A DNA stretch of 31,609 bases from IMG/VR virus record IMGVR_UViG_3300032330_002006, positions 1-31,609 of that record. One strand, written 5' to 3'. The stretch comes from a virus. Taxonomy: Duplodnaviria; Caudoviricetes. Made by a program: the position numbers and the translations under genes. Positions 9,928-28,033 of the stretch are shown here, piece after piece (positions within the stretch are counted from its first letter, which is position 1; each line of letters begins with the position of its first letter). The notes beneath the pieces were generated by a model, which had not been told where the DNA came from, did not search any database, and saw only the letters and a program-made list of their open reading frames with translations.

Positions 9928-10424
9928 AACGAAATGTCGTACTGTTGAATGCCTCCTGCGAAGTTATTAATGTAATAGATTGGTTCAGAGCAGTGAGATT
10001 GATGATGAGTGGTAAAGCAGTTAAATCATACAATTGCCAACACCTATACGAGATACAGACGACATCTGGAGTTTACCATCTACCAAACTCCATCACACTG
10101 ATAGATTATGTGAGAATACCCTACAAAAAGGTTTCTCTGACTAGAAAGAACATCTTCTTCAGAGACAACTACACCTGCCAGTATTGTGGTGACAGAAGCA
10201 TAAAGAAGATGACAATTGACCATGTTCTACCAAGAAGTCGTGATGGAAAAGACACTTGGGAAAATCTAGTTACTTGTTGTAAGAAGTGTAATGTAAAGAA
10301 AAGAGACAGGACACCCGAAGAGGCAAGAATGTGCCTGCTTCGGAAACCAGAAAGCCTAAAGAAAGACATAACCTACGCAGAAGTAGAAAGAATACTTCAA
10401 GGAGAATTAAATGAAAACGAGTGA
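9924..10424 (+). CDS. HNH endonuclease (McrA/HNH_5-like)
   Basis: RDNYTCQYCG...TIDHVLPRSRDG..TWENLVTCCKKCN; N-terminal VVLLNAS. Confidence 0.92.
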   Translation: MKRNVVLLNASCEVINVIDWFRAVRLMMSGKAVKSYNCQHLYEIQTTSGVYHLPNSITLIDYVRIPYKKVSLTRKNIFFRDNYTCQYCGDRSIKKMTIDHVLPRSRDGKDTWENLVTCCKKCNVKKRDRTPEEARMCLLRKPESLKKDITYAEVERILQGELNENE

Positions 10425-10698
10425 TCCAGCAGCATATAGTCATATGGAGGCAATTACAAGTGCCCCAGGCTCTTCCACAGTATTGGCATATAGAGGATTT
10501 TTCATAAATTGCACAGCAAACGGAAGCGTGGCAATAACAGGAAGCACTTGGGAGAAAGTCGAAGGAACAACAGGAACCTTCAAGACGGTCACATTTACCG
10601 TCAATATGTTGGGAAACACCAACACCATACTTCCGATTTCACTGAGAACAATCAATACACTGACTCTCACATCTTGCACGCTATTCGGACTTAGATAA
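10411..10698 (+). CDS. Small Thr-rich, probably beta-strand hypothetical protein
   Basis: 95 aa; AGGAG RBS; TAATG coupling to next gene. Confidence 0.7.
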   Translation: MKTSDPAAYSHMEAITSAPGSSTVLAYRGFFINCTANGSVAITGSTWEKVEGTTGTFKTVTFTVNMLGNTNTILPISLRTINTLTLTSCTLFGLR

Positions 10699-11960
10699 TG
10701 AAATCTTTCAAGACACTCACATCATTCATAAATCTTCTGGAAGAAACAGTCAAGAAGAAAGCAAAGGCGCTAACTGGACATCTTGAGCATGTTGGCGACT
10801 ATCTGTGGTTTGGTAAGAAGGAAACAGACACACAGGAAGGAGTTCCTGTCGATCCTCACAGTGCTATAAAGCACATAGAGATGGTCCATCACAGGTTCAA
10901 GACAGGAAAGAACAAGAAAGGTCACGAACTGACTCTCAAGGCAGATGGTGGTATGAGTGTTGTTATTGGTCGTCATCACGATGGAAAGCACTTCGTTGGA
11001 TACAAGGGTATAAAGACCGCTCACGAAGGATACACAGATCACGATCAGATTGCTGCAACTGGCAAGGAACATTATGTGCGTCAATTGTCTCCTCTTCTGG
11101 ACCATGTCAAGAAGATGAAGATAAAACCAGGCACAGCGATGCAGGGTGACATCATTCATAACGCACACGATCACGATGGCACCGCTAAACCAAACACAAT
11201 CAGATACAAGATGGGTAAAGGAACCAAACTGTCCCTTGCTGTTCACTCCGAGCACGACATAGACAAGAACACTGGTGAATTCAAGAAGAAAACAAACTAT
11301 GCAGACACCAAGAGTATGCAGGCGCCAGGTGTTCACGCTCCAGATCTCGCTATGGATGAAAGAGTGAAACTCAAACTAGATCCAGAAAGATCCAAGAAGA
11401 TAGAACATCATATAAAGTCAGCAAAGGCTTTGATGAAACCAGAAACAGTCAAGTTTGCCAAATCCATTCTCGACGGCAAGACCACTCATCCTAAATTCCA
11501 CGAATTCCTATCACAATACTCCAATCACGAAGCCAGAACAACTGGCTCAAGAGATGTTGATAGAATGCGGGCCCATGTTGACACATATATGAACAAACCA
11601 TCTCAGAAGAAACTGTCACCCAAGTCACAGGAAAGCCTGAGAAAAGGATTGCACGATGCTATTAACAAGAACGAGCATCATTTCCATACTTTATTTGCAA
11701 TCCATAACCACATAACTCAAGCCAAACATCATCTTTTGGATCAAAAAGAAGAACATGGCGATCAATTCGACCTACATCCCCACGAAAGCAGTCCATATAA
11801 GACACCAAAGGGTAAGCCTGCTCACGAAGGTATGGTTTCTAGTTATAAGAACGCAAAAGGTAAAGAAACACAGGCCAAACTCACCAGAGAAGGTAAGAGA
11901 GGTTTCTCTGCGGTAAATCAGGAAGAAGCGCCTAAGAGATTCGCTCCTAAAGAGGGATAA
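10698..11960 (+). CDS. DUF6267-like, ligase-type nucleotidyltransferase-like protein
   Basis: 420 aa; HLEH, TLKADG (KxDG), MQGD, KPNTI.Y, HEGMV, AKL.R..FS..N; leader MKSFKTLTSFINLLEE. Confidence 0.75.
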   Translation: MKSFKTLTSFINLLEETVKKKAKALTGHLEHVGDYLWFGKKETDTQEGVPVDPHSAIKHIEMVHHRFKTGKNKKGHELTLKADGGMSVVIGRHHDGKHFVGYKGIKTAHEGYTDHDQIAATGKEHYVRQLSPLLDHVKKMKIKPGTAMQGDIIHNAHDHDGTAKPNTIRYKMGKGTKLSLAVHSEHDIDKNTGEFKKKTNYADTKSMQAPGVHAPDLAMDERVKLKLDPERSKKIEHHIKSAKALMKPETVKFAKSILDGKTTHPKFHEFLSQYSNHEARTTGSRDVDRMRAHVDTYMNKPSQKKLSPKSQESLRKGLHDAINKNEHHFHTLFAIHNHITQAKHHLLDQKEEHGDQFDLHPHESSPYKTPKGKPAHEGMVSSYKNAKGKETQAKLTREGKRGFSAVNQEEAPKRFAPKEG

Positions 11961-11963
11961 AGC

Positions 11964-11970
11964 ATAAATA
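11964..11970 (+). promoter_or_regulatory. Late promoter box ATAAATA
   Basis: Intergenic, followed by AAGGAG and ATG at 11989. Confidence 0.7.
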
Positions 11971-11988
11971 CAAAAAAGGAGTACCGAT

Positions 11989-12060
11989 ATGGGTTGTAAC
12001 TGTGGAAAACCTAAAACACCTAAAACACCAGCCAAACCGTCAGGTACTAAAGGAAAATAA
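11989..12060 (+). CDS. 23-aa micro-protein MGCNCG...
   Basis: MGCNCGKPKTPKTPAKPSGTKGK; own promoter and strong RBS. Confidence 0.65.
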   Translation: MGCNCGKPKTPKTPAKPSGTKGK

Positions 12061-12069
12061 GGATACTCT

Positions 12070-12477
12070 ATGAACCGTAAGCAAACATTAATGCACACCT
12101 TCAAAAAACAATTTGGAGGCGAATATGTGAGAGAAAATGGTAAATGGTTTTGGACAAACGGCACTGAAAAAAATCTAGTGTCGTATGCGTGGTTGTCTAT
12201 GAAGTTAAAGACAGAAACACCAACTGCTGTACCAGTGATAAAGACAGAACCAACCCCAGCAGTTCCAACCGTAAAGGAACACCACAAGAATGAAGTATCG
12301 GAACACAAGAACGAAACTTTGGTTAAAGATGTTGGAATCAAAGCACCTTCTGAAGAACAAAAATCCGAGACAAAAGTACAGGAACTCACGAAAAACGAAC
12401 TGAGAAGATTGAAGAGAAAAGAGAGACGAGAAAAGAAACTAGAAAACGAAGAACACCACGAAAATGAACCTGAATGA
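12070..12477 (+). CDS. Hypothetical protein
   Basis: 135 aa; AAGGA RBS; aromatic N-domain, charged low-complexity tail. Confidence 0.75.
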   Translation: MNRKQTLMHTFKKQFGGEYVRENGKWFWTNGTEKNLVSYAWLSMKLKTETPTAVPVIKTEPTPAVPTVKEHHKNEVSEHKNETLVKDVGIKAPSEEQKSETKVQELTKNELRRLKRKERREKKLENEEHHENEPE

Positions 12478-12655
12478 ACAATACGATCTGATCTCCGAAA
12501 CCCGAAGGGTATACGCAAAGAGTATGCTAAGGGAACAGGTGTCTCATTTCATAGCAGAAACAATAATGTGCATAGAAGAACAACTGAACAGAGAACTCAC
12601 TCAGGACGAGATAGAAAACATTCTAATACACCTAGCCGATGAAAACATTAACTGA
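12464..12655 (+). CDS. Small acidic hypothetical protein
   Basis: 63 aa; overlaps both neighbours; several L/I-x-E motifs. Confidence 0.7.
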   Translation: MNLNEQYDLISETRRVYAKSMLREQVSHFIAETIMCIEEQLNRELTQDEIENILIHLADENIN

Positions 12656-13718
12656 ACTATTAGAAGCAGCAAAACCTAAGCAACCCAAGCAATTGGTTGC
12701 GACTATGGGTCGTCTACAGCCTCCAACAAGAGGTCACGAACTTCTTGTCGATAAGGTGAAACAACTGGCTAGTGAAATGGGCGCAGATCACAGGATCTTT
12801 CCCAGCACAAAGGAAGGCGGAGATACACCAAAGGAAGAAAAGAAAAATCCTCTTCCATTCAAGACAAAGGTGAAGTATCTCAAGAAATTCTTTCCAAAGA
12901 CAAACATTCACAGCGAACCAAATGTTCACAATCCATTTCACCTTCTACAGCACGCTCACGACAATGGCTATCACCATGTCCATCTAGTCGTAGGTGGAGC
13001 AGAGGGTCAAAAAGGTGAAAGATTTGATGAGTTTGGTAAGCAGTTCGAAAAATACAAGACACCAAAAGGGACATACAAAATACCACACGAAAAAGGTGGT
13101 CATTTTGAGATTGGCTTAACTTTGCACTCGGCAGGAAAGAGAGATGAAAAATCATCTGGTGTCGAAGGACTGTCTGGTAGTAAAGTGAGAGATACGATAT
13201 TATCGTCCGATCACACTAACCCAAAGCATGTGGCAAGAGTTCATTCTATGTTGCCATCTGGAGCAAAACCAGAACACGCCGCTGCTCTCATCAAGGACAT
13301 AAAACACCACACTGAGAGAATGGCTAGAGAAAGAGAAGAAGCCAAAGCAGCAAGAAAAGCAGCAAAGAAAGCCGTGGTCAAAGAAAGTATTCTTCCAGAT
13401 CCCATTATGGACATCATTCTTGAGATGTTCCTTGCCGAAAAAGAAAGCAAGGAAACCCGTCGCAAGCGTGATCGCAGAATGTACGGACATGGCAAATCTC
13501 TCAGCGAATTGACACCAAAACAGCGTCAAAACCGCAAGAAGAAGAGCAAGAGAACTGTTGCGAGAAGAAAAGCCAATCGTGAAGGACGCACCGAGAAGGG
13601 TGACAGTTCTGTGGAACTAGATCACAAGAACGGAAACGCTATGGATAATGGTTCCCACAATCTAAGAGTAGTTTCCAGACATCACAACAGATCTAGAAAC
13701 AACAACAAAAATCACTAA
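12639..13718 (+). CDS. Cytidylyltransferase-like (HxGH-type) nucleotidyltransferase fused to C-terminal HNH domain
   Basis: GRLQPPTRGH, KNPL, VVG...R, SAG.RD, SGSKVR; C-terminal ELDHKNGNAMDN..HNLRVVSRHHNRSRN; leader MKTLTELLE. Confidence 0.85.
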   Translation: MKTLTELLEAAKPKQPKQLVATMGRLQPPTRGHELLVDKVKQLASEMGADHRIFPSTKEGGDTPKEEKKNPLPFKTKVKYLKKFFPKTNIHSEPNVHNPFHLLQHAHDNGYHHVHLVVGGAEGQKGERFDEFGKQFEKYKTPKGTYKIPHEKGGHFEIGLTLHSAGKRDEKSSGVEGLSGSKVRDTILSSDHTNPKHVARVHSMLPSGAKPEHAAALIKDIKHHTERMAREREEAKAARKAAKKAVVKESILPDPIMDIILEMFLAEKESKETRRKRDRRMYGHGKSLSELTPKQRQNRKKKSKRTVARRKANREGRTEKGDSSVELDHKNGNAMDNGSHNLRVVSRHHNRSRNNNKNH

Positions 13719-13721
13719 ATA
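13715..13721 (+). promoter_or_regulatory. Late promoter box CTAAATA
   Basis: Overlaps upstream TAA; GAGG RBS; ATG at 13737. Confidence 0.7.
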
Positions 13722-13736
13722 CGCCAAGAGGTTTAT

Positions 13737-14162
13737 ATGAAAAGTTTCAAGGAACTCAGAAATCTTACCGAAAAGAAATCCCTCAAGAAGGCTTGTTGGG
13801 ATGGTTATGAAGCGGTAGGGATGAAGGAAAAGGACGGTAGACAGGTTCCTAACTGTGTTCCTATCAAAGAAGAAGATGAAAAGAAACCATACAAGGGTTT
13901 CAAGAAAGGTAAGAACCATCCAGAGGGTGGACTTTCCAGAGCAGAAGCAAAAAGACAAGGTATACACGCTGGCGTAGAGACAAAAAGAGAAGCAGAGAAA
14001 AAGGGCGGGTTCGGTAAACTTTCCGATAAAACACAAGCGAGAAGAAAATCATTCTGTGCTCGTATGTGTGGAATGAAGAGAAGAAATACCAGTTCAAAGA
14101 CAGCAAGAGATCCAAAGAGTAAGATAAATGCCGCTCTCCGAGTATGGGGATGCAGATGCTAA
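13737..14162 (+). CDS. DUF6321-like protein with N-terminal CW.GY...VPNCVP motif
   Basis: KNHPEGGL...RRKSFCARM.GMK...TARDPKS.IN.ALR.WGC; leader MKSFKELRNLTE. Confidence 0.8.
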   Translation: MKSFKELRNLTEKKSLKKACWDGYEAVGMKEKDGRQVPNCVPIKEEDEKKPYKGFKKGKNHPEGGLSRAEAKRQGIHAGVETKREAEKKGGFGKLSDKTQARRKSFCARMCGMKRRNTSSKTARDPKSKINAALRVWGCRC

Positions 14163-14173
14163 AAGGAAACAAA

Positions 14174-14722
14174 ATGAACTATCATAAACTAAGAAATATT
14201 CTAGGAAACTTAAGAGAACACGCAGCAAACTCAACATACGCTGCTCCTGACAACGGTCCATCTTTGACCGATGGTTCTATCGCTGCATTCAAGTTGGAAG
14301 ATCCAGAGGTTCTTGCTCGTATAAATGCATTCCTCAAGGTATTCTGCACAGAGAGACACCAAGATCCAAAGTATGCTCTCGTAGTCCTGAGAACCAAACT
14401 CAATACTCTGGGTCTTGACTTCTCCTACGATGGACGCAGACCACTCAGTCCGAAGGAGTCCTTCCACCTGACACAGTTTGGTGGAAGAACAGGAGTTGAT
14501 GAGAAGGGCAACCAACTCAACGACTGTGGCATCTCACACAGAACTGGTGGCAGAAGTATGGAACTTTCTGTCGAGATTTCTCCTATAAATGTTGGAGATG
14601 AGAGAGAACCAGGCCCATATTATGTTCACGCGACAATACAGTATGCGAATGGTATGAATAGCGGAGATACTTCTCCAATTCAAAAAGGAGAAGCGGCGGC
14701 TTCCTTGAAGCCCAATAGATGA
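14174..14722 (+). CDS. Hypothetical protein
   Basis: Start moved to MNYHKL (AAGGA RBS upstream); leader ends NLRE. Confidence 0.75.
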   Translation: MNYHKLRNILGNLREHAANSTYAAPDNGPSLTDGSIAAFKLEDPEVLARINAFLKVFCTERHQDPKYALVVLRTKLNTLGLDFSYDGRRPLSPKESFHLTQFGGRTGVDEKGNQLNDCGISHRTGGRSMELSVEISPINVGDEREPGPYYVHATIQYANGMNSGDTSPIQKGEAAASLKPNR

Positions 14723-14733
14723 TGGAGTTGTTG

Positions 14734-15114
14734 ATGGAATTTATAAAGTTAGATGATGCGAACTATATGATGTTCGCGATGAAACACTACGAAAATCCTC
14801 AGTGCTCAAGCGTTGAGGAATTTCACGAAGATATGAATCGCATCAAATACTTGAAAAGATTGCTGAGAAAATACAAGACAACAGGTGTGTTGAGAGAACG
14901 GCTTATACTGAACCATATAATAATCTTCTACAACATCTTCGGAATAGAACCAGCAACGAGATTGCTTTTCTCAAGAATAGAAGAAGATCTACATCCATAT
15001 CTCAAGACATTCATAGTGTTTCTGAACAATCTACCGAAGCAAATACCAGAATATGATCTTTTAGTAATTCCGATGGACACAAGAATAATAGCAAAGTTGA
15101 GAAAAATAATATGA
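14734..15114 (+). CDS. Conserved T4-like phage hypothetical protein
   Basis: FAMKHYENPQC..EEF.ED..RIKYLKRLL..Y...G.LRERLILNH, a pattern I recognise from T4-like phages; GGAG at 14724 supports this start. Confidence 0.8.
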   Translation: MEFIKLDDANYMMFAMKHYENPQCSSVEEFHEDMNRIKYLKRLLRKYKTTGVLRERLILNHIIIFYNIFGIEPATRLLFSRIEEDLHPYLKTFIVFLNNLPKQIPEYDLLVIPMDTRIIAKLRKII

Positions 15115-15710
15115 AGAAACTAAAAGAAGGCGTTGAAGTAGATCAGAAGTTCCTAAAGACATTCGTGATGGATGCCATAAAGAACCCAAGGAAGTTCTAC
15201 GCACTTCTTACTCTTGCTGGTGTGAATTCCATCGAAGCATACAAGATAATGTATAATCTCAAGCATCCTAGATTGGTTTCCAGCAACTTCAGAACCAAGA
15301 TGCAGATGCTTGCTCTTCTACAGAATATAATAGAACTAATAACACACGACAGAATACTCTATTCTCGTCTACGCAGTATGGCTATGAGTGGAGATTTTGG
15401 TCATATTGCAAAGAATGTGTCACATCTTCCTCTTCGCAAGGGTTCGTTCGAACTCGATGATATAGAAGAAGACGCTGCACCAGGCGCAACTGCACCACTT
15501 GTCAGCGATTCCGCACCTACATCCATAGGAACATCGGAAATCGCAGGAGTTGCACCACCAGGTCAACAACCTTTCGTCAGCAGTAGCGTTATGAACAGAA
15601 GGAAAAACATTTCTCCAGATGTAATGGCTATGCTCAAGAAGATGTTCAACAAAGCAAAGAGCGGTAAACCAAGAGGCGGACAGAGCCCAAACATAATTCA
15701 TATGAATTGA
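15111..15710 (+). CDS. Hypothetical protein
   Basis: 199 aa; ATGA overlap; leader MKKLKE. Confidence 0.75.
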   Translation: MKKLKEGVEVDQKFLKTFVMDAIKNPRKFYALLTLAGVNSIEAYKIMYNLKHPRLVSSNFRTKMQMLALLQNIIELITHDRILYSRLRSMAMSGDFGHIAKNVSHLPLRKGSFELDDIEEDAAPGATAPLVSDSAPTSIGTSEIAGVAPPGQQPFVSSSVMNRRKNISPDVMAMLKKMFNKAKSGKPRGGQSPNIIHMN

Positions 15711-15717
15711 GGTTAAT

Positions 15718-16152
15718 ATGACACCAGAACTATTGTCGCTTATAGGCGGAGGAGTGACTGGATTTATTTTTCGTCATATGGCTGAGAAGAGAGTAGCGGA
15801 ACAAGAGAACTTCAAGCGTCTCATAGAGATGATAAACATACGAGAGAAGAGCGTAGAAGCGGCGGTAAAGAGAGTTCCTGTCGATGCTGGTAAGACAGTA
15901 AGACAGATCATAGTCCTTATGGTTCTATTTGGAACCATCGCAGCACCATTCGTACTCCCGTTCTTCGATATACCAACAGTAGTGGAAGTCCCTGTTACAT
16001 ATCCAGAATGGCTATTCGGTCTGATCCCAGAAAGAAAAGAAACAATATTCCAGACAGTAAATGGCTATCTCTTCACCAAGGAAAATAGAGAGATACTGCT
16101 CAGTATAGTTGGTTTCTATTTTGGTTCAGCAGCGGGTGGAAACAGAACCTAA
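15718..16152 (+). CDS. Membrane protein, holin-like candidate
   Basis: 144 aa; 2-3 hydrophobic segments, C-terminal ILLSIVGFYFG. Confidence 0.6.
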   Translation: MTPELLSLIGGGVTGFIFRHMAEKRVAEQENFKRLIEMINIREKSVEAAVKRVPVDAGKTVRQIIVLMVLFGTIAAPFVLPFFDIPTVVEVPVTYPEWLFGLIPERKETIFQTVNGYLFTKENREILLSIVGFYFGSAAGGNRT

Positions 16153-16155
16153 ATA
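16149..16155 (+). promoter_or_regulatory. Late promoter box CTAAATA
   Basis: Overlaps upstream TAA; AAGGAG RBS; ATG at 16173. Confidence 0.7.
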
Positions 16156-16172
16156 TAGAAAAGGAGACAGTA

Positions 16173-16766
16173 ATGAAAAAATTTGCGATAATAATGACAA
16201 CGATTGTTCTATTCACTCTTGCTTCCTGCAAGAATATCTTCACCACACCAACTCTCGTAGAGAGAGGTCCAGATAAGGTCAACAATCCAACCAAGACGAT
16301 GGTTGCGAATGAAACACCTGTTCAGATCCCACAAGGAACTACTGTAAAATCTTGCGGCGAGACACAAGCAACCTTGACAGACGACACTACTGCAAAGACA
16401 AAGGATTTAGTGACAAGCAAGGATGTAGTTCTTCCCAAGAATACAGCAGTTGTTCTCCCAGAAAAGACAGAACTCAAGACCAGTCAACCAACGAATGTAA
16501 ACATCGGTGCATCATCTGAAGTTGTTCTTCCAGCAGGAACCGAAATAACCACACACAAGTTGAATTGGTATGCAGCACTGTTCTATCTGCTTCTGATGGT
16601 TGTCGCTGGGTATTGGTATATGAAAGTCAAGGGAGACAAAGACGACAACCAAGATGGTATTGTTGATGAACCAGCAGCACCTGTTGTCAAGAAACCAAGA
16701 AAAGCAAAAGTGAAAACAGTCGCACCAACCACTCCACCAACAGTTAAGAAGAAATCTCTTTCTTGA
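16173..16766 (+). CDS. Lipoprotein with C-terminal transmembrane helix (unimolecular-spanin-like architecture)
   Basis: Signal MKK+hydrophobic+lipobox LASC; VxLPxxT repeats; TM WYAALFYLLLMVVAGYWYM; basic tail. Confidence 0.65.
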   Translation: MKKFAIIMTTIVLFTLASCKNIFTTPTLVERGPDKVNNPTKTMVANETPVQIPQGTTVKSCGETQATLTDDTTAKTKDLVTSKDVVLPKNTAVVLPEKTELKTSQPTNVNIGASSEVVLPAGTEITTHKLNWYAALFYLLLMVVAGYWYMKVKGDKDDNQDGIVDEPAAPVVKKPRKAKVKTVAPTTPPTVKKKSLS

Positions 16767-17313
16767 ACTTAGTGTAGAGATACTTACAGATATAAAAAGA
16801 ATCAACGATGTCGGAAATTGGATTTCCGACATCTTTCTTTTCTGGACATATCATATCCTTTATTCTCTCACCAGTTTCATCGACAAATGCTTCATACATC
16901 ATTTGCTTGTCTGCGTTTCCCTTGCCCGTTGCGAACTTCTTTATTTCGGATGGTGTGTATATTGATACTGGTATGTTCAACTGATACATCTTGTATTTGA
17001 GAACACCAGTGTTTTCTGCTATATGAAACACTCTACCCTGAGCAGAATATGCATATCCTTCCAGAGCAACCTGATCACAACCTATGACGGTTTCGAGTGC
17101 CCAATCTGCAATCGACTCATACCTCTCCATCTCCATATTCCAATCAATAAAACGCTCACCGAATATGTTTCCATAATTCTTTTCAGTGTATTTCTTTATG
17201 TCTGTAAGGAAATAGAATGTGCAGTTGTCGTAGGTAAATTGCTCACCACCATCCCCGTTGAAAACACATATGGATGGTCCATTCAGTGAGTAATCTATTC
17301 CTGCGATGAGCAT
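16744..17313 (-). CDS. RuvC-like Holliday junction resolvase
   Basis: IAGIDYS, VALEGYAY, KKFATGKGNADK, DIVDS; start at MLIAG with GGAG RBS. Confidence 0.85.
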   Translation of the reverse strand: MLIAGIDYSLNGPSICVFNGDGGEQFTYDNCTFYFLTDIKKYTEKNYGNIFGERFIDWNMEMERYESIADWALETVIGCDQVALEGYAYSAQGRVFHIAENTGVLKYKMYQLNIPVSIYTPSEIKKFATGKGNADKQMMYEAFVDETGERIKDMICPEKKDVGNPISDIVDSFYICKYLYTKFKKEISS

Positions 17314-17326
17314 ACAGTAACTCCAT

Positions 17327-17440
17327 AAAAACACACGCGGGCGCTTGTACGCAAAATGAGTTTTTTGCTAAAACCACTTTATGTGAAGTTAAAGGGTTTT
17401 CATTTTGGTATGTTTAAGCGATCAAAGTCCCGCGTGTGCC
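17327..17440 (-). ncRNA. Candidate structured RNA (~113 nt)
   Basis: Closing helix CACACGCGGG/CCCGCGUGUG, nested helices CAAAAUGA/UCAUUUUG and AAACC-CUUUA/UAAAG-U-GGUUU, 3' U5; begins just after TATAAATA. Confidence 0.6.
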
Positions 17441-17443
17441 CAG

Positions 17444-17451
17444 TATTTATA
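17444..17451 (-). promoter_or_regulatory. Consensus T4 late promoter TATAAATA
   Basis: Exact match, immediately after a terminator. Confidence 0.85.
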
Positions 17452-17453
17452 TG

Positions 17454-17477
17454 AAAACCCCCGCTTTCGCGGGGGTA
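17454..17477 (-). terminator. Intrinsic terminator
   Basis: Minus strand ACCCCCGC-GAAA-GCGGGGGT-TTT after stop at 17485. Confidence 0.85.
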
Positions 17478-17484
17478 TTTCTGA

Positions 17485-17619
17485 TTATTTCTTATTCCAA
17501 GGCAACTTGGAACTGATTAGGTTCCAAACTGGCTGCCCGAACACCGCACCAGCGATGAAGAGCAATACGGAATAACAAACTGTACCTACTGTAGATGAAA
17601 AGAAATTACTAAAGTCCAT
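17485..17619 (-). CDS. 44-aa single-pass membrane protein (absent from ORF track)
   Basis: MDFSNFFSSTVGTVCYSVLLFIAGAVFGQPVWNLISSKLPWNKK; AAGGAGG RBS; own promoter and terminator. Confidence 0.85.
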   Translation of the reverse strand: MDFSNFFSSTVGTVCYSVLLFIAGAVFGQPVWNLISSKLPWNKK

Positions 17620-17637
17620 AATAGACCTCCTTGTTAG

Positions 17638-17644
17638 TATTTAT
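17638..17644 (-). promoter_or_regulatory. Late promoter box ATAAATA
   Basis: Overlaps upstream TAA; precedes AAGGAGG. Confidence 0.7.
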
Positions 17645-17844
17645 GCGTTGAGAGCGTTAAGAGCATTATCAATCTTGGTTTGTTGTCCAATTATCTTGGC
17701 GCCAATAAACTTACAACATACCTTTACATTTGGGTCTTTCTCCCAAAGTGCGGTCTTATCAAGAATATCGACCAAAAACGACAAAGCATTATCTACATTT
17801 ATATCTGGATTGATTTCAAGTGCGATTGGTTCCAATTTATCCAT
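17641..17844 (-). CDS. Hypothetical protein, 67 aa
   Basis: Start moved to MDKLEP, 8-nt overlap with nuclease gene. Confidence 0.65.
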   Translation of the reverse strand: MDKLEPIALEINPDINVDNALSFLVDILDKTALWEKDPNVKVCCKFIGAKIIGQQTKIDNALNALNA

Positions 17845-18229
17845 TTGCTTTTCTCTTTTCTTGTAAAAGTTTAATATCTTTGTTCTTAGTTCCACCATCA
17901 TACGACCAAGCATATCCCTTTTCCACAAGTAAAGTATTTAGACACACACCAGCATCGTTCCTGATCTCTCCAAGCATTCTGCCATACTTATCGTCTTTGG
18001 TGGTCTTTATCGTCAAATTCTTGTTGCTGCTTAACCAATTTTCAACAAAAGCCTTTGCTTCGTTTGCCATCTTTCTCTCGACTTCATCTTTGGCAGTCAT
18101 TTCTGGTGTGTCCACTCCAGAAATACGAATTCTCTGGATTGTGAACATATAGAAACCGACATCAAGCGTCAGATCGACAGTATCACCATCCACTACTTTA
18201 GAAACATTACTAATTCTGTATTCGTACAT
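17837..18229 (-). CDS. Thermonuclease (SNase-like) family nuclease
   Basis: MYEY...KVVDGDTVD...RIRISGVDTPE...DKYGRMLG...LVEKGYA..YDGG; AAGGAG RBS. Confidence 0.92.
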   Translation of the reverse strand: MYEYRISNVSKVVDGDTVDLTLDVGFYMFTIQRIRISGVDTPEMTAKDEVERKMANEAKAFVENWLSSNKNLTIKTTKDDKYGRMLGEIRNDAGVCLNTLLVEKGYAWSYDGGTKNKDIKLLQEKRKANG

Positions 18230-18239
18230 ATATTCTCCT

Positions 18240-20150
18240 TTAGTTTGTAAGATCAACCAGTTCACATCCATCCGCGCTACATGCCATGGTCTGTGAACTC
18301 TTGGTCGTGTCATTCTTCTCGTAATTCTTCAGGATGCTCCAATCAACATCTTTTGGCATCTTCTCAAGAGCAGCAAGGTATTGTTCCTTGGTGCATTCCT
18401 GATATGGTGCTTGCTGATATGAGTGATCGGAATGTGGTAGGAACGAGATGCCACTGATCTCATCAAAGTGATCATAGACCCAAGAACCTACTTGCATCCA
18501 TTCGTGATCCTTTACAGTCACGGTGATTGATGGCTTGTGCTCGCACCAGTTGCGCTGATACTTCAACCACAATTCAAGATGCTCTATTGCTGTCATATCA
18601 TTTCTAGTGATGGAACCTTCTGCTTTCATAGGGAACGAGAACACCATAGTATGATCTGGTTTCATAACACAAGGTTCAGCGGGGAAACCAAGATCAATCA
18701 TCATCTGACACAGTGGATCCTTGCGATCTGCACGGACAGTTCTGATGTAATATTCACTGTGACGAGCGTGGATGCCTGACGCAGCATCTGTCAACTGAGA
18801 TACTGTTCCCGATGGCTTGACGCAGGTGATTGCGGCCGCTTGATTGATCTTCAATCTCTTCGACCAATCCTTATTTGTCTCGATTGCCACTTGCTTCAGA
18901 CCCTGCAAGAACATATCGGAAGGATTTTGCATAATCTTATTGTCAACAATTCCCGTCAGAGAGACACCAAGCAGTGCTTCCTCTTCGCAGTTCTTCTTCC
19001 AATCGCTAGTAAGATAGGGGAAGTTGGTGAGAGATGCTTGCCATGTTCCTAGAATGGATGCTAGACGGATCTTTCGCTTCAGAGATTCCTCTGTGTCATC
19101 TGAACGGATTATAACTTCAGTAAGGTTGCAAAATTCACGGTCGCGTAGAATAATCTCACTGCAAGGATTTGTACCAAACTCATAAGACGAATCTCTGCGA
19201 TCTCCCAACTTGGAAACAGTTCTACGACAAGCATCACGGTTGAAAATGCCGCGTTCTCCACTCTTGCTCTTATAGAGTGACAACCATTCTTCAATAAAGA
19301 CACCAATTTCTGGTTTCTCCTTGTATGCTACGCTGTTGTTTGCGAGTGCTCGCTGCGGATTGTCAGTCCACCACGCGCCAGTCTTAGCATCACGCATTCT
19401 TTCATCGGTGAGATTCGATAGGCTAATAAGAGCAGATCTACGCACTCCTCCGACCACGACAATCTCTGCAATCTTACAGACAATATCGTGGCACTCAATA
19501 GATGTGAGTTTCCTGCCGGCGGCTCTTCGGAAAGTATCACTGGTGAATCGGAAAAGATCTTCGAGAGGTTTAGGACCCGATGCTCTTCCACCGAATGTCT
19601 TGAGGCGCGCGCCAGAAGGACGAACCTTTGAGATGTCCCATCTTGGAACTTGACCTCCAATAAGCAGGGAGATAAGTTCTTTATAAGCCTTAGCCCAACC
19701 AGCCTTACTGTCTTGGACAACGATGATTGTATCTGAGTCAGTAAAGTGTTCAGCGATTGTAGGAAGTTTCTCGACATATTGACGCTCCACACTAAAACCT
19801 ACACCTGTACCACACATCAGGATGTAGAGGATTTCATCGAATGCTCTTACACGATTTACAGCCACATATGAGCAGTTGTAGCCAGCAGTGTTGTCCCTTT
19901 CCAGTGCTTCTCCTGCTGTCATCAAAGCACGCATACTTGGCATGATCTCAAGATTGAGAACTGCTTGCTCAAGTTCATTTCTTAGATCACCCGATAGTAT
20001 AAATTTTTGATTATCCTTGAGGTGTGCCTCGAAGAAATCGAAATAACGCTTCACTGTCTCTTCCCAAGTTTCTCTTCTATTCTCCTTTTCAAGCCATCTT
20101 GAATAACGGGAAAGGTGAATGAAATCTTGGTAAAGTGTAGGTAAACTCAT
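18240..20150 (-). CDS. nrdJ: Class II (adenosylcobalamin-dependent) ribonucleotide reductase
   Basis: RRETWEETV, PSMR, YNCS, GTGVGFS, GGVRRSA, TNPCSEI, FCNLTE, TCVKPSGTVS, C-terminal ACSADGC; no beta-subunit gene adjacent. Confidence 0.93.
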   Translation of the reverse strand: MSLPTLYQDFIHLSRYSRWLEKENRRETWEETVKRYFDFFEAHLKDNQKFILSGDLRNELEQAVLNLEIMPSMRALMTAGEALERDNTAGYNCSYVAVNRVRAFDEILYILMCGTGVGFSVERQYVEKLPTIAEHFTDSDTIIVVQDSKAGWAKAYKELISLLIGGQVPRWDISKVRPSGARLKTFGGRASGPKPLEDLFRFTSDTFRRAAGRKLTSIECHDIVCKIAEIVVVGGVRRSALISLSNLTDERMRDAKTGAWWTDNPQRALANNSVAYKEKPEIGVFIEEWLSLYKSKSGERGIFNRDACRRTVSKLGDRRDSSYEFGTNPCSEIILRDREFCNLTEVIIRSDDTEESLKRKIRLASILGTWQASLTNFPYLTSDWKKNCEEEALLGVSLTGIVDNKIMQNPSDMFLQGLKQVAIETNKDWSKRLKINQAAAITCVKPSGTVSQLTDAASGIHARHSEYYIRTVRADRKDPLCQMMIDLGFPAEPCVMKPDHTMVFSFPMKAEGSITRNDMTAIEHLELWLKYQRNWCEHKPSITVTVKDHEWMQVGSWVYDHFDEISGISFLPHSDHSYQQAPYQECTKEQYLAALEKMPKDVDWSILKNYEKNDTTKSSQTMACSADGCELVDLTN

Positions 20151-20169
20151 AATAACTCCTTTGATGAAT

Positions 20170-20197
20170 ATCATACCACAACCGATTGTGTTGTCAA
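20170..20197 (-). promoter_or_regulatory. Sigma70-type promoter for nrdJ
   Basis: TTGACA-16 nt-TATGAT with TG extended -10, upstream of AAGGAG RBS. Confidence 0.7.
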
Positions 20198-20223
20198 CTG
20201 CTTTTGTGCTTGATATGTAGTGG
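20176..20223 (-). promoter_or_regulatory. Tandem NrdR-box-like sites
   Basis: ACACAATCGGTTGTGG (20191-20176) and CCACTACATATCAAGC (20223-20208), 32 bp apart; both imperfect matches to acaCwAtATaTwGtg. Confidence 0.45.
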
Positions 20224-20448
20224 TTAGAAAGTGCCGCCGTCGAGGTTGTCGTTCACCCATTCTGAACCGTTGTATTTCAGAACTTGATTTGAATTTGGTG
20301 AACTTATAGTAACATCAGACAGATCGGACAAAGCAATATCAACGATAGTACCGCTCTTGACTACCCAAGCAACACCGTTCCATTCCCAAGTGACGGTTCC
20401 TATGCTGTGTATTGTGCCTATAGATGGTGTGTTTGGAAATCCTGCCAT
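20224..20448 (-). CDS. Small fibre-associated structural protein
   Basis: 74 aa; FPxxPS.G...WEWNGVAW and LSDLSDVTISSP...QVLKYNGSEWVN, LDGGTF motifs typical of phage fibre proteins. Confidence 0.75.
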   Translation of the reverse strand: MAGFPNTPSIGTIHSIGTVTWEWNGVAWVVKSGTIVDIALSDLSDVTISSPNSNQVLKYNGSEWVNDNLDGGTF

Positions 20449-20457
20449 GTTAGTTCC

Positions 20458-21672
20458 TTATATGATCTCGAACCAAGAAAGATCCGTAACTATTTTAGTA
20501 TTTGCGGTGGATGCGGCGACCATAATGGTCAATACATCGGATACTCCTGCTTGAGTTCTTCCTAATTGGAAATTGAAGTCATTTGCTTCATTGACGACCA
20601 AGGTTCCACCGTTGTTGATATAACCACCTATGACATCCGTGGCACTACTAAGAGTTGTGGTATTTGTGTGGAGGACATAATCAACATTTCCATTATAATG
20701 GGTTGTCCAAGTTGGAGAAGTCCCACCAAATGTTCCATTCAATACTATTCTGTACTGAGCCCATGTATTCGATGTCACGATAAGGCTGGCATTCGATGGT
20801 ACAATCACCGAATCGAGACGGTTTGAATTTAGACGAATGGATGCTATTGGATAGTATGTGTCGGCATTTGTCAGATTGAAAGGTGTCGTTCCCGAAGAAA
20901 TATTAAATCTTCTGCTGAATCCTTCAAATCCTGCTTCGGACATCACGCTGTTGCATATCTGCTTTGCAGTAGAGGCAGATGCAGTCGCTGCGACATTCTC
21001 TATCTCCATACGCAAAGGCAGAGATGCGGTGGTCATGTATACCGTTGAGCGAAGATTGTCATTATGAAAAGTATGGGCAATCACTGGTCTTCCATCGACT
21101 ATGAAACCAACACGAACATCACCGACACCCAACCATTCTATGTCCATCAGCAGAATGTTTGCCTTGGTAAGGTCAAGAGTTCTTCCGCTAGGACCAGAAC
21201 CGTTGAATTTGTCTCCATTCCAATCCGATTGTGCCACCTTATATGTCGTATCATCTACCGAGCCACTCACATATGTCCTCAGAACGAGATATACCGTATT
21301 GTTTGTCTGCTCAAGATATATTCCATTTTGCATTCCAAAAAAACCAATCCTCTGTCTGAGGTTTGTCTGTTTTGGTGCAAATACAAATGTTGATAACACC
21401 AATAAAGATTTTCCTGGCTGGTATGGGAACACTCTTTTGGTTTCTCTATATACTTTTGAACCAGAAGCGGTAGTTACTTTAAGATCCAGTGTGCTTTCAT
21501 TTGTCTTAAATTGTGTTGTTCCCCCAGAAGCAGTCAGAGTATCCCACTTGTCGTTTTCCTGATAGCGATGCTGGGAATCGAATAGAGTAAATGGAGTGCT
21601 GACCTTTAGACGAGCAAAAGCATCTATCGCTTCTCCCTTGAATCGTATCTGATCGTTGAACAAGTAACTCAT
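20458..21672 (-). CDS. Putative virion structural protein (beta-rich)
   Basis: DAFARLKVSTPFTLFDS, FPYQPGKS, DIEWLGVG.VR.GF; ATGA overlap at MSYLF. Confidence 0.75.
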   Translation of the reverse strand: MSYLFNDQIRFKGEAIDAFARLKVSTPFTLFDSQHRYQENDKWDTLTASGGTTQFKTNESTLDLKVTTASGSKVYRETKRVFPYQPGKSLLVLSTFVFAPKQTNLRQRIGFFGMQNGIYLEQTNNTVYLVLRTYVSGSVDDTTYKVAQSDWNGDKFNGSGPSGRTLDLTKANILLMDIEWLGVGDVRVGFIVDGRPVIAHTFHNDNLRSTVYMTTASLPLRMEIENVAATASASTAKQICNSVMSEAGFEGFSRRFNISSGTTPFNLTNADTYYPIASIRLNSNRLDSVIVPSNASLIVTSNTWAQYRIVLNGTFGGTSPTWTTHYNGNVDYVLHTNTTTLSSATDVIGGYINNGGTLVVNEANDFNFQLGRTQAGVSDVLTIMVAASTANTKIVTDLSWFEII

Positions 21673-23534
21673 ATTATTCTCCATCCATCTCTATAGATGA
21701 ACTGTAGTGCTGCATTATCTAGATTTATTATTGCCGAATCCTGATTGTCGATGTAATCATTAGTGTTCGATGGAACTATCATAATGTATCTATTAGCATA
21801 TCCTGCATGGCCAGATTCATCCTTCACAGTTACGGTCTTACCAGTTGTAGGATTTGATGGCAAAGTAATGGTGACTATGCCAGGATAGTTCACACCGATA
21901 TAATAATCCAAGGAAGTCGCCTGATATGACGAACTTGTAACTTCAACAGTGTTGAAAGATGGTGAAAGATTGGTAGTCGGTACTACCGAAATTTCCACCC
22001 ACTGGTACGAATCTCCATCGTTGAAGTATGTGAAGTATCTACCTGTTGTGCTGTTGAACCAACGATCACCGTGGGCCGCTGGTGATGGTGGAGATGGTGC
22101 GTAGGTGAATGTGCTTTCTCCAGGCGGACCCTGATCGCCAGTGTCTCCCTTCGGACCTTGAACTCCCGTATCGCCCTTTATACCAGTAATCTCTACCCAC
22201 TGGTATGAATCACCGTCATTCATATAGACCAAATAACGACCAGTTGTACTGTCAAACCAACGATCACCGTGTGCAGCACCTACTGGTGCTGTTGGACCAT
22301 ATGTGAATGTGCTTTCACCTGCTGGACCCTGTGGTCCCGTGTCTCCAGTATCTCCTTTTGGACCCTGAGGACCTGGTGGACCCTGCTCACCAGTTCCCCC
22401 ACCTCCACCGCCGCCAGTTCCAAGAGCAGTGACAGTTATGTTGTTTTTATTTACATCTACAGTAAAACCATCTGCAAAGTTTATATTGCGAAGGTTCTTT
22501 ACTATCTTCTGTCCATCCTTGAATACAGAAACATTACCACCACCACCGCTTTGAGTGGTATATGCGGAACTCAACTTATCCTCTATGAACTTTGTCTCTA
22601 ACTTTAGTTCCTTTGTTTCCTTGTCGTAGAGGAGTGGAAACGATGCTTCTAGTATCGCGTCTTTGCCAGCAGGTCCAGCAGGTCCAACCGCACCCGCTGG
22701 CCCCATAGGACCGATCTCGCCACGAGAACCCACAGGACCTTGAATACCTTGTTCGCCGCGTTCGCCCCTCTCTCCGCGGTCACCACGATCTCCCTTTGCT
22801 CCTTGTGGTCCAACTGCACCTTCAGGGCCTCTCTTTCCTTGCGGGCCAGGTATTCCCTGATCTCCTTTCTCGCCAGCGACACCCTGAGGTCCGATTGGAC
22901 CCCGTTCTCCCCCAATTCCTTGTGGGCCTTGGGGACCGATTTCTCCGCGTTGTCCTTGCTCACCTCGGTCTCCCTTCTCCCCCTTATTGCCTTGGGGGCC
23001 TGGTTCGCCTTTGTCACCCTTTTCCCCTTGCGGGCCAGCAACACCGTCGAGTCCATTCTGACCAGGATCACCTTTATCTCCCTTCTCACCCTTTGCGCCT
23101 TGAGATCCTTCTGGTCCCATCATTCCACGAGGACCAGTTTCTCCCTTTTCGCCTTTCTCACCTCTTTGTCCAGAAATGCTTTTTACGATTGGTTGTTCTG
23201 TTATAACAACTTTATTTTCTTCATTATCCACTACCGTAAGTGGAATGTCGGCATCTCTTGCTTCCATAAGAGCATCTATGATGCTCTGCTTCTTATCCAC
23301 ACCACCTATGATCTTTACACATCTATTGTTCTTTTCATCCAAGAAATGAAATTCACCCTGACCACGCAGTTTTATTCTATAGACGGGAAATTCATTTGCC
23401 AGTTCTGCTGTGCAATATGCTAATACCGTTCCTTCTTCTAGATCGCCAATAGTATGGGTGGTGGTGAATTCGTCACCATAACGAACCAAACCACGCCGCA
23501 AAGGAATATCAGTACCACCGTATTTTCTGGACAT
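21669..23534 (-). CDS. Collagen-repeat fibre protein
   Basis: 621 aa; long Gly-X-Y tracts; two copies of STFTY.P..P..AAHGDRWF.STTGRY..Y.NDGDSYQWVEI; C-terminal YYIGVN...TITLP...VKDESG. Confidence 0.9.
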   Translation of the reverse strand: MSRKYGGTDIPLRRGLVRYGDEFTTTHTIGDLEEGTVLAYCTAELANEFPVYRIKLRGQGEFHFLDEKNNRCVKIIGGVDKKQSIIDALMEARDADIPLTVVDNEENKVVITEQPIVKSISGQRGEKGEKGETGPRGMMGPEGSQGAKGEKGDKGDPGQNGLDGVAGPQGEKGDKGEPGPQGNKGEKGDRGEQGQRGEIGPQGPQGIGGERGPIGPQGVAGEKGDQGIPGPQGKRGPEGAVGPQGAKGDRGDRGERGERGEQGIQGPVGSRGEIGPMGPAGAVGPAGPAGKDAILEASFPLLYDKETKELKLETKFIEDKLSSAYTTQSGGGGNVSVFKDGQKIVKNLRNINFADGFTVDVNKNNITVTALGTGGGGGGGTGEQGPPGPQGPKGDTGDTGPQGPAGESTFTYGPTAPVGAAHGDRWFDSTTGRYLVYMNDGDSYQWVEITGIKGDTGVQGPKGDTGDQGPPGESTFTYAPSPPSPAAHGDRWFNSTTGRYFTYFNDGDSYQWVEISVVPTTNLSPSFNTVEVTSSSYQATSLDYYIGVNYPGIVTITLPSNPTTGKTVTVKDESGHAGYANRYIMIVPSNTNDYIDNQDSAIINLDNAALQFIYRDGWRII

Positions 23535-23541
23535 ATACTGT

Positions 23542-23548
23542 TATTTAT
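23542..23548 (-). promoter_or_regulatory. Late promoter box ATAAATA
   Basis: Overlaps thyX stop; only 7 nt before collagen-gene ATG. Confidence 0.65.
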
Positions 23549-24243
23549 GTTATTAGTTGCTCCCAACAAACGGGATAAAGAGGACGAATTATCTCTCCAA
23601 TTGCGTCAGCATACCTCTGAACCTCCCACTGCGCGTGAGCGTCTGTACGCTGCTTATACACGCGGGCAAACGCAGATAGAGATCCTGTCCACCACCACTC
23701 TGTATAGGTTGATTGGGGTAGAATGCTTCTGGCCTGCTCTGGTGCAACTCCAGATGCCAATAGTCCATTATATACCTCTACGCACTTCTCTGCCGTTTCT
23801 CGGAAGCCGTTCATCATAAGAACGGATGGTTCCGTGACAAATCCGCTGCTTCCCTGTTTGGCTCCGTCCACAGGAGCGTTTCGCCATATTGGAGTGTAGA
23901 ACTGGGGTTCCTCCACGACATATCTGCGAGACACTTCGTTCTCCACAAACCCTACCTTGTGCTTGAAAAGTTGGGTTCTGACGAATATCGGTGCTTTGAT
24001 ACGCAGGGTGATCTGCGGGTGAGCGAATGGTGTCCAGTGATTGTGCTTTGCCAAGTAACGAATCAACTTGGTGTCTTTGTCTGACAGTTTTCGTTCTCTT
24101 GCACCTGTCCAGTTTGGATCACTGTCCCAATCACTTTCCTTGTTGAAGGAAACCCTTGCCGCATTTGCCACGGTAAGATCACTCCCCATATGATCGAGAT
24201 ACTCAACATGACCATGATCCAATACCTTTATACTTTTTTCCAT
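23545..24243 (-). CDS. thyX: Flavin-dependent thymidylate synthase
   Basis: MGSDLTVANAARVSF, HWTPFAH, NEVSRRY, APEQARSILPQ, HAQWE. Confidence 0.96.
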   Translation of the reverse strand: MEKSIKVLDHGHVEYLDHMGSDLTVANAARVSFNKESDWDSDPNWTGARERKLSDKDTKLIRYLAKHNHWTPFAHPQITLRIKAPIFVRTQLFKHKVGFVENEVSRRYVVEEPQFYTPIWRNAPVDGAKQGSSGFVTEPSVLMMNGFRETAEKCVEVYNGLLASGVAPEQARSILPQSTYTEWWWTGSLSAFARVYKQRTDAHAQWEVQRYADAIGEIIRPLYPVCWEQLIT

Positions 24244-25223
24244 ACCGATAATCTCAATTCTGCGCTCAATCCGCTATAGATGTTTTCGTTAATTGTCTCA
24301 AGGATCTCTCTGTGAGACACACCAGATCTGACCATATCGTTCACATCCTTCTGTGTTATATTGTCTGGCCAGATACACACGCTATAATTATTTCTAATCA
24401 ACTTCTCATATTGCTTGATGACTTCTCTATTTCTTGGTTCGTTGTCCAACACAAAGATTGGTCTTGTGACGGCGGGATCCAAATCGTGGTTCATACCCAG
24501 AATGGCGATGCAATTCGGTAGGAACATAGAGTCGATAGGACCTTCAACGACATATGTGTTTTCGTCCAACTTCGTCCTATCAATACCATAGCACAGATAT
24601 TGCTGATCTGGATTGAACTTGATCGTGATGTATTTTACTTCGCTAGGATAGATCGCTCTACCCTGAAATCCAACAAGATTTCCGTCTATGTCTCGGATAG
24701 GTATGATCAGCCTGGGTTCTTGACCAACTTGCTTCTCAGGATCAAACTTACGGACGAATTCAGAAAAGTTCTCTGCATAGAATAGATCGCTGTGAAAATC
24801 GCTCGGGATCTTTCTAGAAAGGACATACTCCTTGCACTCGTGGTCGTTGGGCAATTCCACCACCGAAGGTAGATCAATTCTCTTTCCTTCGAAGGTAGGT
24901 TGCTCAAATTTGAATTCAGGCTTTGTATAATTTGAATGTCCATTCTCACCCTTCTTCCACCGTTCAAGTGCATATTCTCTGCACAGTGCAGGAGATACTT
25001 GCTCCAGAAACTTATATAGAGTTGTGCTTATACCACAATTGTGGCAACGATAGAAAATATTGTTTCCCTTTTGGTAGAAGTAGCCTCTTGCTCTGTTCTT
25101 GTTCTTCTGCGAATCACCGCAGATAGGACAACGACAGTTTGCAAGATTGTCCTTCTTCCACGCGAACTTGTCGAGTGAAGAGGAAACCATAGACAGAAAT
25201 TTCTTGTCAGTTATTATTGACAT
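24228..25223 (-). CDS. 61: T4 gp61-like DNA primase
   Basis: Zn finger CPICGDS...CHNC; RLIIP, FQGR, YVVEGPIDSMF, DNEPRN, KDVND. Confidence 0.95.
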   Translation of the reverse strand: MSIITDKKFLSMVSSSLDKFAWKKDNLANCRCPICGDSQKNKNRARGYFYQKGNNIFYRCHNCGISTTLYKFLEQVSPALCREYALERWKKGENGHSNYTKPEFKFEQPTFEGKRIDLPSVVELPNDHECKEYVLSRKIPSDFHSDLFYAENFSEFVRKFDPEKQVGQEPRLIIPIRDIDGNLVGFQGRAIYPSEVKYITIKFNPDQQYLCYGIDRTKLDENTYVVEGPIDSMFLPNCIAILGMNHDLDPAVTRPIFVLDNEPRNREVIKQYEKLIRNNYSVCIWPDNITQKDVNDMVRSGVSHREILETINENIYSGLSAELRLSVWKKV

Positions 25224-25353
25224 ACATCTTAGCGTCGGGGAATGCCCGATTCGCCCATTCCTTCCACTCTGGAAGATCTTCTTCTCTTACGAATGGCAAC
25301 GATGCCATTCTCTCTTCGAGGCTACGGGTGTCGTTGTCCAAGATACGCTGCAC
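25207..25353 (-). CDS. 48-aa hypothetical protein (GTG start; absent from ORF track)
   Basis: MQRILDNDTRSLEERMASLPFVREEDLPEWKEWANRAFPDAKMYVNNN; GGAG RBS; fills helicase-primase gap. Confidence 0.6.
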   Translation of the reverse strand: MQRILDNDTRSLEERMASLPFVREEDLPEWKEWANRAFPDAKMYVNNN

Positions 25354-25369
25354 GGGGTGATACTCCACA

Positions 25370-27831: not shown

Positions 27832-28033
27832 TCTTCAAATCCTTTATAATATCGAGTGTTCTCTGCTTTATGTCCTTATAGAAATCTGCTTCACGCAAGT
27901 AGAATTCATAAGTATCAATACTTCCATTTTTCATCTTGGACAATTCTTTAATCGTCACGACAGCATCTTCGTGCTTTTGCTCAAGAAGAGGAAGAATTTT
28001 CTCAAAATAATCAACATCAATTTTAATACTCAT
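27815..28033 (-). CDS. Hypothetical protein, 72 aa
   Basis: ATGA-coupled to polymerase, overlaps uvsX start. Confidence 0.7.
   Translation of the reverse strand: MSIKIDVDYFEKILPLLEQKHEDAVVTIKELSKMKNGSIDTYEFYLREADFYKDIKQRTLDIIKDLKNGNFR

Follow-up and report, generated by a model that had tools for sequence, protein, structure and literature searches.

Organization of the ruvC locus

The window, the whole 31,609-nucleotide stretch of DNA analysed here, is a piece of a large T4-like phage that carries genes for DNA polymerase, helicase, primase, UvsX, thymidylate synthase, ribonucleotide reductase, and tail fibres. On its minus strand, an intrinsic-terminator-like hairpin, a T4-type late promoter box, a 113-base foldable stretch, a Shine-Dalgarno (SD) sequence, and a gene for a RuvC-like protein follow one another in that order. 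The non-coding gap ahead of the gene (17314–17484, 171 nt) ranks among the window's largest, which bears out the statement in a first-pass annotation of this DNA that the foldable stretch fills one of the largest gaps.

The gene itself (16744–17313, minus strand; hereafter ruvC) encodes 189 amino acids and matches PHROG 159 (E 6e-32) and, above the cut-off, Pfam PF02075. Acidic residues D7, E85, D168, and D171 are invariant. By both profile and acidic residues the product is a phage RuvC-like Holliday junction resolvase, and junction cutting is predicted for it. The protein has no added domains and is just as long in relatives that lack the RNA described below; RuvC proteins of phages that carry the RNA show no clade-specific insertion or domain. 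A terminator-like hairpin lies within the ruvC coding region on the plus strand (16807–16833), facing the convergent plus-strand operon. Its 11–12 pairs and U-rich tail are encoded by ruvC codons on the opposite strand. It occurs in the window and in the related records L004, L222, and L229, all with a convergent gene that reaches or overlaps the end of ruvC, and is absent from L002, L003, L005, and L212, where a gap separates the two.

Colinear fragments from close relatives (G044 and G055) add a late sigma factor, RegA, capsid and tail genes, tRNAs, and a permuted tmRNA, so that genes for a gp55-type late sigma factor and for RegA are present in a relative of the window phage. In another close relative (L234, 15796–16230, minus strand), a permuted tmRNA adjoins a tRNA cluster, a DksA-type zinc finger, and a SpoU methylase. 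Upstream of the gap, a small gene for a 44-residue hydrophobic protein (17485–17619, minus strand) has its own late box (17645) and SD and matches no PHROG; it is kept 5′ of the structured element in L004, L222, and L229 and adjoins ruvC in L073, which lacks the element. Elsewhere in the window, tandem late genes (1032–1212, 1455–1635, and 2637–2713) share near-identical 5′ segments comprising the promoter box, an A-rich ribosome site, and N-terminal coding sequence, and these segments recur in G044 and G045; the genes are possibly a tagged cargo family or a shuffling cassette. A host search in Atlas returned viral clusters only, and the genome match was a phage-like contig with a tRNA inside a bin. 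A Planctomycetota host would be a guess from sequence motifs and carries no weight in the analysis. One lake metatranscriptome contained contigs 99% alike; these 19 low-depth contigs lie on window positions 10000–29999, with none covering the element, and are uninformative either way.

A late-promoter box immediately precedes the element

The terminator noted in the first-pass annotation was located at 17476–17457 (minus strand), where it could close the upstream transcript; the hairpin also scores on the plus strand. It is seen in the window, L004, L222, and L229 and is absent from L002, L003, L005, L212, and L225. The late box TATAAATA lies at 17451–17444 (minus strand) and is, as annotated, exact; it is the sole exact copy in the window. 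Because 0.61 exact copies are expected there by chance, exactness means little alone. The box gains its weight from being retained in 10 of 10 aligned sequences, all with an invariant ATAAATAC, although the upstream flanks differ. In each of these sequences it ends 4–5 nt 5′ of the closing helix of the element.

The likely start site can be read from related ruvC genes that lack the RNA (rod-less loci). In 14 of 20 rod-less representatives the late box lies exactly 5 nt 5′ of an ATG without an SD, and we therefore infer that late transcription starts (+1) at the sixth base after the box. In L006 to L074 this arrangement falls mostly at bases 1985–2003. It suggests that rod-less ruvC is expressed from a leaderless mRNA, with translation of the resolvase confined to the late phase.

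The element is predicted to fold into a closed rod or a three-way junction

The first-pass annotation proposed a novel structured RNA beginning at the late +1, and the sequence it quoted is exact. The 113-nt element (17327–17439, minus strand; family A) folds at −39.4 kcal/mol (z = −3.94), and 0 of 200 shuffled sequences fold as well. The GC-rich closing helix P1 (5′ arm 17429–17439, 3′ arm 17331–17341) comprises 10 Watson–Crick pairs plus a terminal G–U and is followed by U5; in family A this stem begins at the fifth or sixth base after the box, that is, at or one base from the inferred +1. The one-sided bulges, annotated as about 10 nt each, measure 8 nt on the 5′ side and 11 nt on the 3′ side, and there is also a 5 × 1 internal loop. 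An apical arm of 11 pairs ends in hairpin P4, which has an 8-nt loop (17389–17382). The U tract (17327–17331; 5–8 U in homologs) is a candidate leaky 3′ end: a GC helix followed by U5–8 is found in 10 of 10 sequences, but the enclosed loop of 90 nt is unusual for a terminator, and our terminator scan, which allowed loops of 3–8 nt only, did not call it. The ribosome-binding site follows immediately, as annotated, with the ruvC SD GGAG (17324–17321) directly 3′ of the U tract. A four-codon mini-ORF within the core was set aside because it has no SD.

No Rfam 15 family reached its gathering threshold with the element; the best scored 21 bits against a required 50, mostly from the upstream terminator. 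The novelty claimed at the outset is thus not removed by a known family.

The core has two near-isoenergetic states in all 10 sequences, a rod and a three-way junction that lie within 0–2.4 kcal/mol of each other. In the three-way junction, the 3′ bulge makes a small hairpin (17351–17368, minus strand) that excludes P3 (17407–17401 with 17358–17352), and an 11-base A-rich 5′ strand opens. The first-pass annotation had pointed to a different alternative pairing and raised the possibility of a switchable leader. That pairing can form, yet in each of the 10 sequences it brings a loss of stability of 7–11 kcal/mol. When the closing helix is left out, folding is penalised by 13–20 kcal/mol in all 10, and we rejected an anti-terminator on this energy. 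Given these two penalties, the sequence by itself provides neither a switch nor an anti-terminator. The element does not pair with the SD in the predicted folds; the SD lies beyond the structure in either core conformer, and none of the conformers hides or frees it or opens the closing helix. The suggested switch pairing is not supported.

The core is conserved in sequence and the outer helix in structure

Ten other records carry the element, six viral and four from metagenomes; two are identical or nearly so to the window. Its 52-nt core (17364–17415), which spans the 5′ strand of P3, the apical hairpin P4, and the start of the 3′ bulge, is identical at 52 of 52 positions in 36 of 45 pairwise comparisons and at 51 of 52 in the nine pairs that involve L222, whose single change is wobble-compatible. 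The fourfold-degenerate sites of ruvC retain 32–50% identity between the window and its divergent relatives, and only 21 of 184 third codon positions are invariant among eight full-length genes. The longest invariant run is 44 nt in the element versus 8 nt in ruvC. Invariance of the core over such divergence of the neighbouring gene argues for sequence-specific recognition.

The helices differ in how they vary. None of the 18 inner pairs ever changes, while 4 of 11 outer pairs do: in P1, three of 11 pairs change on both sides, one changes on one side, and none is broken. P2 is imperfect, with 4 of 9 pairs broken in some rows. In a covariation test, the pair count was reached by 47 of 500 shuffles and the score by 0 of 500. 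The outer helix does show the compensatory changes looked for, though they amount to about two events in one helix and not to strong covariation. Together, the alignments indicate that the element is under selection, and they point to an outer helix constrained by structure only and a core whose sequence something reads. Conservation, compensatory changes, and the blank Rfam search support a selected, structured, and uncatalogued element that starts at the late +1, and bear out this part of the first-pass annotation.

The element is strictly linked to ruvC

In all 10 other records the element is present once, flanked immediately by ATAAATA on its 5′ side and by ruvC on its 3′ side. The element–ruvC cassette is found behind three different upstream genes and is inverted relative to its neighbours in one record. 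A search with the RuvC protein recovered 80 loci, six with the element and 74 without. Exact and gapped pattern scans of viral contigs returned the same six records (6 of 6 and 6 of 6, then 6 of 7, the seventh being unrelated), and a looser pattern gave at least 110 matches with no new homolog among the matches listed. Four of 20 matches in a metagenome pattern scan were true; genome contigs gave 0 pattern matches, and cultured phages gave no meaningful DNA match to the element. A covariance model found only its three positive controls among 46 records; one weak match among 30 further records fell in a coding region and was rejected. No second copy, or copy elsewhere, was found in the 76 records searched with the model, all of them incomplete. 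In four cultured phages the gap before ruvC is at most 63 nt, too small for such an RNA.

The RuvC proteins encoded next to the element form one clade with a support of 99 on a quick tree, which was built from 57 representatives of 112 proteins with one row relabelled by hand and from which we claim no order of gains and losses.

Folded RNAs with no detected similarity to the element occupy the same slot

A scan for late boxes 101–131 bases 5′ of a ruvC start, covering 57 of 64 parts, yielded at least 119 loci with 70 distinct leaders. Three further folded families occur in this slot: B (27 sequences, 88–92 nt), C (one sequence), and D (two sequences), with lengths of 76–92 nt across the three. 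Longer leaders (129–159 nt) revealed no new family among 15 matches. The family A model finds nothing in B, C, or D (0 of 5 records), and Rfam gave no match for six loci of these families. They resemble family A in having a stem that starts from the late +1, in lying directly 5′ of a related ruvC-like gene, and in being present in one copy; the closing stems of all four families start within one or two bases of the inferred +1. They differ in having no detected sequence similarity to A, and B and C have a second late box just 5′ of ruvC and no U tract right after the stem. Family D keeps the order terminator, box, RNA, ruvC seen in the window.

Family B forms a rod before ruvC (L351, L359, and about 25 more, at 1206–1300), and its sense strand folds better than the opposite strand in 25 of 27 sequences. 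Families C and D are three-way-junction RNAs (L376 1225–1300; L341 1212–1288; L384) with a common small CCCGAAG hairpin and similar closing stems, next to RuvC proteins in different subclades. In family D (L341 1311–1321; L384), an out-of-frame ATG lies 4 nt 5′ of the ruvC ATG, at SD-optimal spacing in L384, and could divert ribosomes.

Among 990 TAAATA boxes in eight genome fragments and the window, all six ruvC boxes of rod-bearing records are followed by a strong rod (z −4.2 to −8.5). The other 984 have no strong rod, with two marginal cases (z −2.7 and −3.0). Because the records had been selected for the presence of a rod before ruvC, and a good many TAAATA boxes do not serve as promoters, this census shows one rod per fragment rather than an unbiased rate. 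The quick tree intersperses the four families among rod-less lineages, a pattern compatible with repeated gain and equally with an ancient RNA followed by losses.

Possible functions of the element

RuvC-family resolvases are DNA binders, and RNA binding by this one is an assumption of what follows. Strict linkage, recurrence of folded RNAs at one gene, and the invariant core argue for a protein-binding RNA concerned with the resolvase. The reading we lean towards, while giving it somewhat less than an even chance, is that a leader with a leaky terminator is set free as a small RNA, which binds the resolvase and buffers it, in a layout like that of type III or AbiF systems without membership of either. 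The late sigma factor would start transcription at the base of the closing helix, leaving the 5′ end paired and protected. The GC-rich helix and U5–8 could then act as a leaky terminator, so that the short RNA is in excess and ruvC mRNA made by read-through is the minor product. A branched three-way core might be recognised by the junction-binding resolvase dimer, such that free RNA titrates the enzyme, and resolvase bound on the read-through mRNA, 6–10 nt from the SD, could damp translation. Restraint of the resolvase would keep branched replication intermediates intact until packaging. Of the functions first suggested for the element, a decoy or antitoxin-like role is the most consistent with the invariant core and the linkage to ruvC; the switch finds no support.

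Several observations limit the resolvase-binding reading. The 74 of 80 related ruvC loci without such an RNA count against it, in that the resolvase evidently does not need the RNA everywhere. So does the lack of any special feature in the RuvC of rod-bearing phages. The terminator step is not general, and the B and C RNAs could be independent genes, given their second box and lack of a U tract. A shape common to all four families was not found with the family A model, which detects none of the other three. A broader version, that the T4-like lineage has repeatedly recruited unrelated RNAs as junction-mimicking antidotes to the resolvase, giving type III-like control of the switch from replication to packaging with family A as its bistable rod/three-way form, strikes us as an unlikely conjecture. 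Family A is nonetheless a compact and strongly selected candidate with an obvious neighbour as its possible partner, and the four folds in one slot are a natural cognate/non-cognate set. If resolvase binding holds, family A would represent an RNA that inhibits a DNA-junction nuclease and would account for delayed debranching of replicating phage DNA.

A doubtful but possible alternative is a late small RNA that has only its promoter in common with ruvC and acts as a decoy for a different protein, such as host RNA polymerase (as 6S RNA does), phage RegA, or a sensor of host defence. Such an RNA would be suited by base pairing of both its 5′ and its 3′ end, the U tail, and a core conserved far beyond the needs of a leader, as well as by the second box that leaves ruvC its own promoter in families B and C. 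The three-way state also exposes a single-stranded A-rich stretch with an AUG that resembles RegA sites as described in a review (PMC3014915), and a relative encodes RegA. This alternative leaves unexplained why four folds occur at ruvC and none comparably strong at the 984 other boxes, and no copy was found elsewhere in 43 plus 30 related records, including rod-less fragments of 100–170 kb (all incomplete). For the 6S-like version in particular, there was no 6S match at E up to 10, and the apical arm has only 11 pairs. We consider it unlikely that the element is instead a purely cis-acting leader, in which a 5′ stabilising helix and leaky terminator meter ruvC and are switched by a non-RuvC factor or by pairing of the apical loop with the SD. 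Strict linkage and the SD directly after the U tract would be expected of it, and five loop bases are complementary (one by wobble) to the conserved UGGAG; the loop–SD match is short, however, and absent from B, C, and D. Nothing competes with the closing helix (13–20 kcal/mol, 10 of 10), the SD is outside both conformers, and neither a stabiliser nor a terminator needs 52 invariant bases.

The remaining readings are improbable even when taken together. An invariant loop and core could serve an antisense RNA that pairs with phage or host mRNA or rRNA, and 14 bases that match part of a late gene (window 1178–1191), wobble allowed, do so in G044 as well. This match has an E of about 0.7, is interrupted in G045, and lies within a repeated, broadly conserved 5′ gene segment, and other matches of 14–15 bases are scattered, with none common to the phage records scanned, which makes pairing of this kind very unlikely. 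Similarly slight is the likelihood of a DNA-level element, be it a protein-binding site, a cruciform, or an inserted miniature inverted repeat. In its favour, all 10 family A sequences fold more stably as the opposite strand, and P2/P3 contain three changes that disrupt sense-strand pairs but would be wobbles on the other strand; the energy gap of 4.5 kcal/mol, however, equals that of shuffled sequences (4.7 ± 3.3) and is therefore what base composition predicts. The nested repeats do not share one axis but have three, the stem runs from +1, each record has a single copy, and in 25 of 27 family B sequences it is the sense strand that is favoured. A transcript of the opposite strand would moreover be stopped in four records by the terminator-like hairpin inside ruvC. 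Least credible, to the point of near-dismissal, is the scaffold of an RNA-guided, OMEGA-like RuvC nuclease: a conserved non-coding RNA does adjoin a RuvC-fold gene with intact acidic residues, but it has no variable guide segment, only 4–6 variable bases in a bulge, and the 189-residue protein has no added domains and is equally long in RNA-less relatives.

Comparison with known systems

Several known RNAs share features with family A. 6S RNA is rod-shaped, its ends are paired, and an A-rich region inside it is unpaired; family A forms a similar rod but is much shorter, has a short apical arm, and has no Rfam match. OMEGA (TnpB/IscB) systems are set apart by a variable guide and extra RNA-binding domains, both absent from the family A locus. 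T4 gene 49 encodes that phage's junction resolvase. According to a 2010 review, T4 restrains this gene through a leader RNA, and genes 49, e, soc, and I-TevI have leader hairpins with the promoter inside the 5′ arm and a helix that hides the SD or AUG (PMC3014915). Gene 49 is a precedent for RNA-based restraint of resolvase expression in such phages, by another geometry. Family A likewise combines RNA structure and a late promoter ahead of a late nuclease gene, but its promoter precedes the whole structure and its SD lies outside the helix, unlike the gene 49, e, and soc hairpins as described there. The RegA operator is given in the same text as unstructured A/U-rich RNA with an A tract before the AUG (PMC3014915); the corresponding A-rich/AUG stretch of family A is unpaired only in the three-way state. 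By the same account, T4 had yielded no functionally characterised small trans-acting regulatory RNA as of 2010 (PMC3014915).

The closest layouts are those of type III toxin–antitoxin and AbiF systems. ToxIN and AbiQ have the order promoter, RNA, leaky terminator, nuclease (PMC8167048), and in the RCd22-AbiF prophage system an RNA of about 100 nt ends at a terminator, read-through gives the nuclease mRNA, and the RNA works in cis as well as in trans (10.1101/2025.04.15.648962). Family A shares with these the succession of promoter, RNA of about 100 nt, putative terminator-like end, SD, and nuclease gene, together with conserved co-location, and as in type III loci one promoter and an RNA lie 5′ of the nuclease gene. 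It differs in its promoter, a phage late box, and in that protein binding is here only proposed. The tandem repeats of type III RNAs are absent (0 direct-repeat families in 3 of 3 sequences), and the type III toxin is a ToxN/AbiQ/AbiF endoribonuclease where the protein here belongs to the RuvC family by PHROGs and Pfam, a DNA junction resolvase. Lacking repeats and having a RuvC-family protein, the locus falls outside type III.

A structured RNA has also been catalogued ahead of viral RuvC-domain genes. DNAVirus_908 (Fremin et al. 2023, PMC10690425) is 104 nt long, with 45 listings at most 25 bp upstream of such genes, and its 93 sequences have predicted betaproteobacterial hosts and come mostly from engineered and terrestrial habitats. 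It is unlikely to be family A, from which it is set apart by its counts (93 sequences versus six IMG/VR records) and predicted hosts. We found no description of the family A element in the literature searched, a comparison that for the PMC10690425 catalogue covered counts and predicted hosts. Phage nuclease genes headed by a structured RNA are an already known kind of arrangement, and within that kind family A appears to be a new RNA family.
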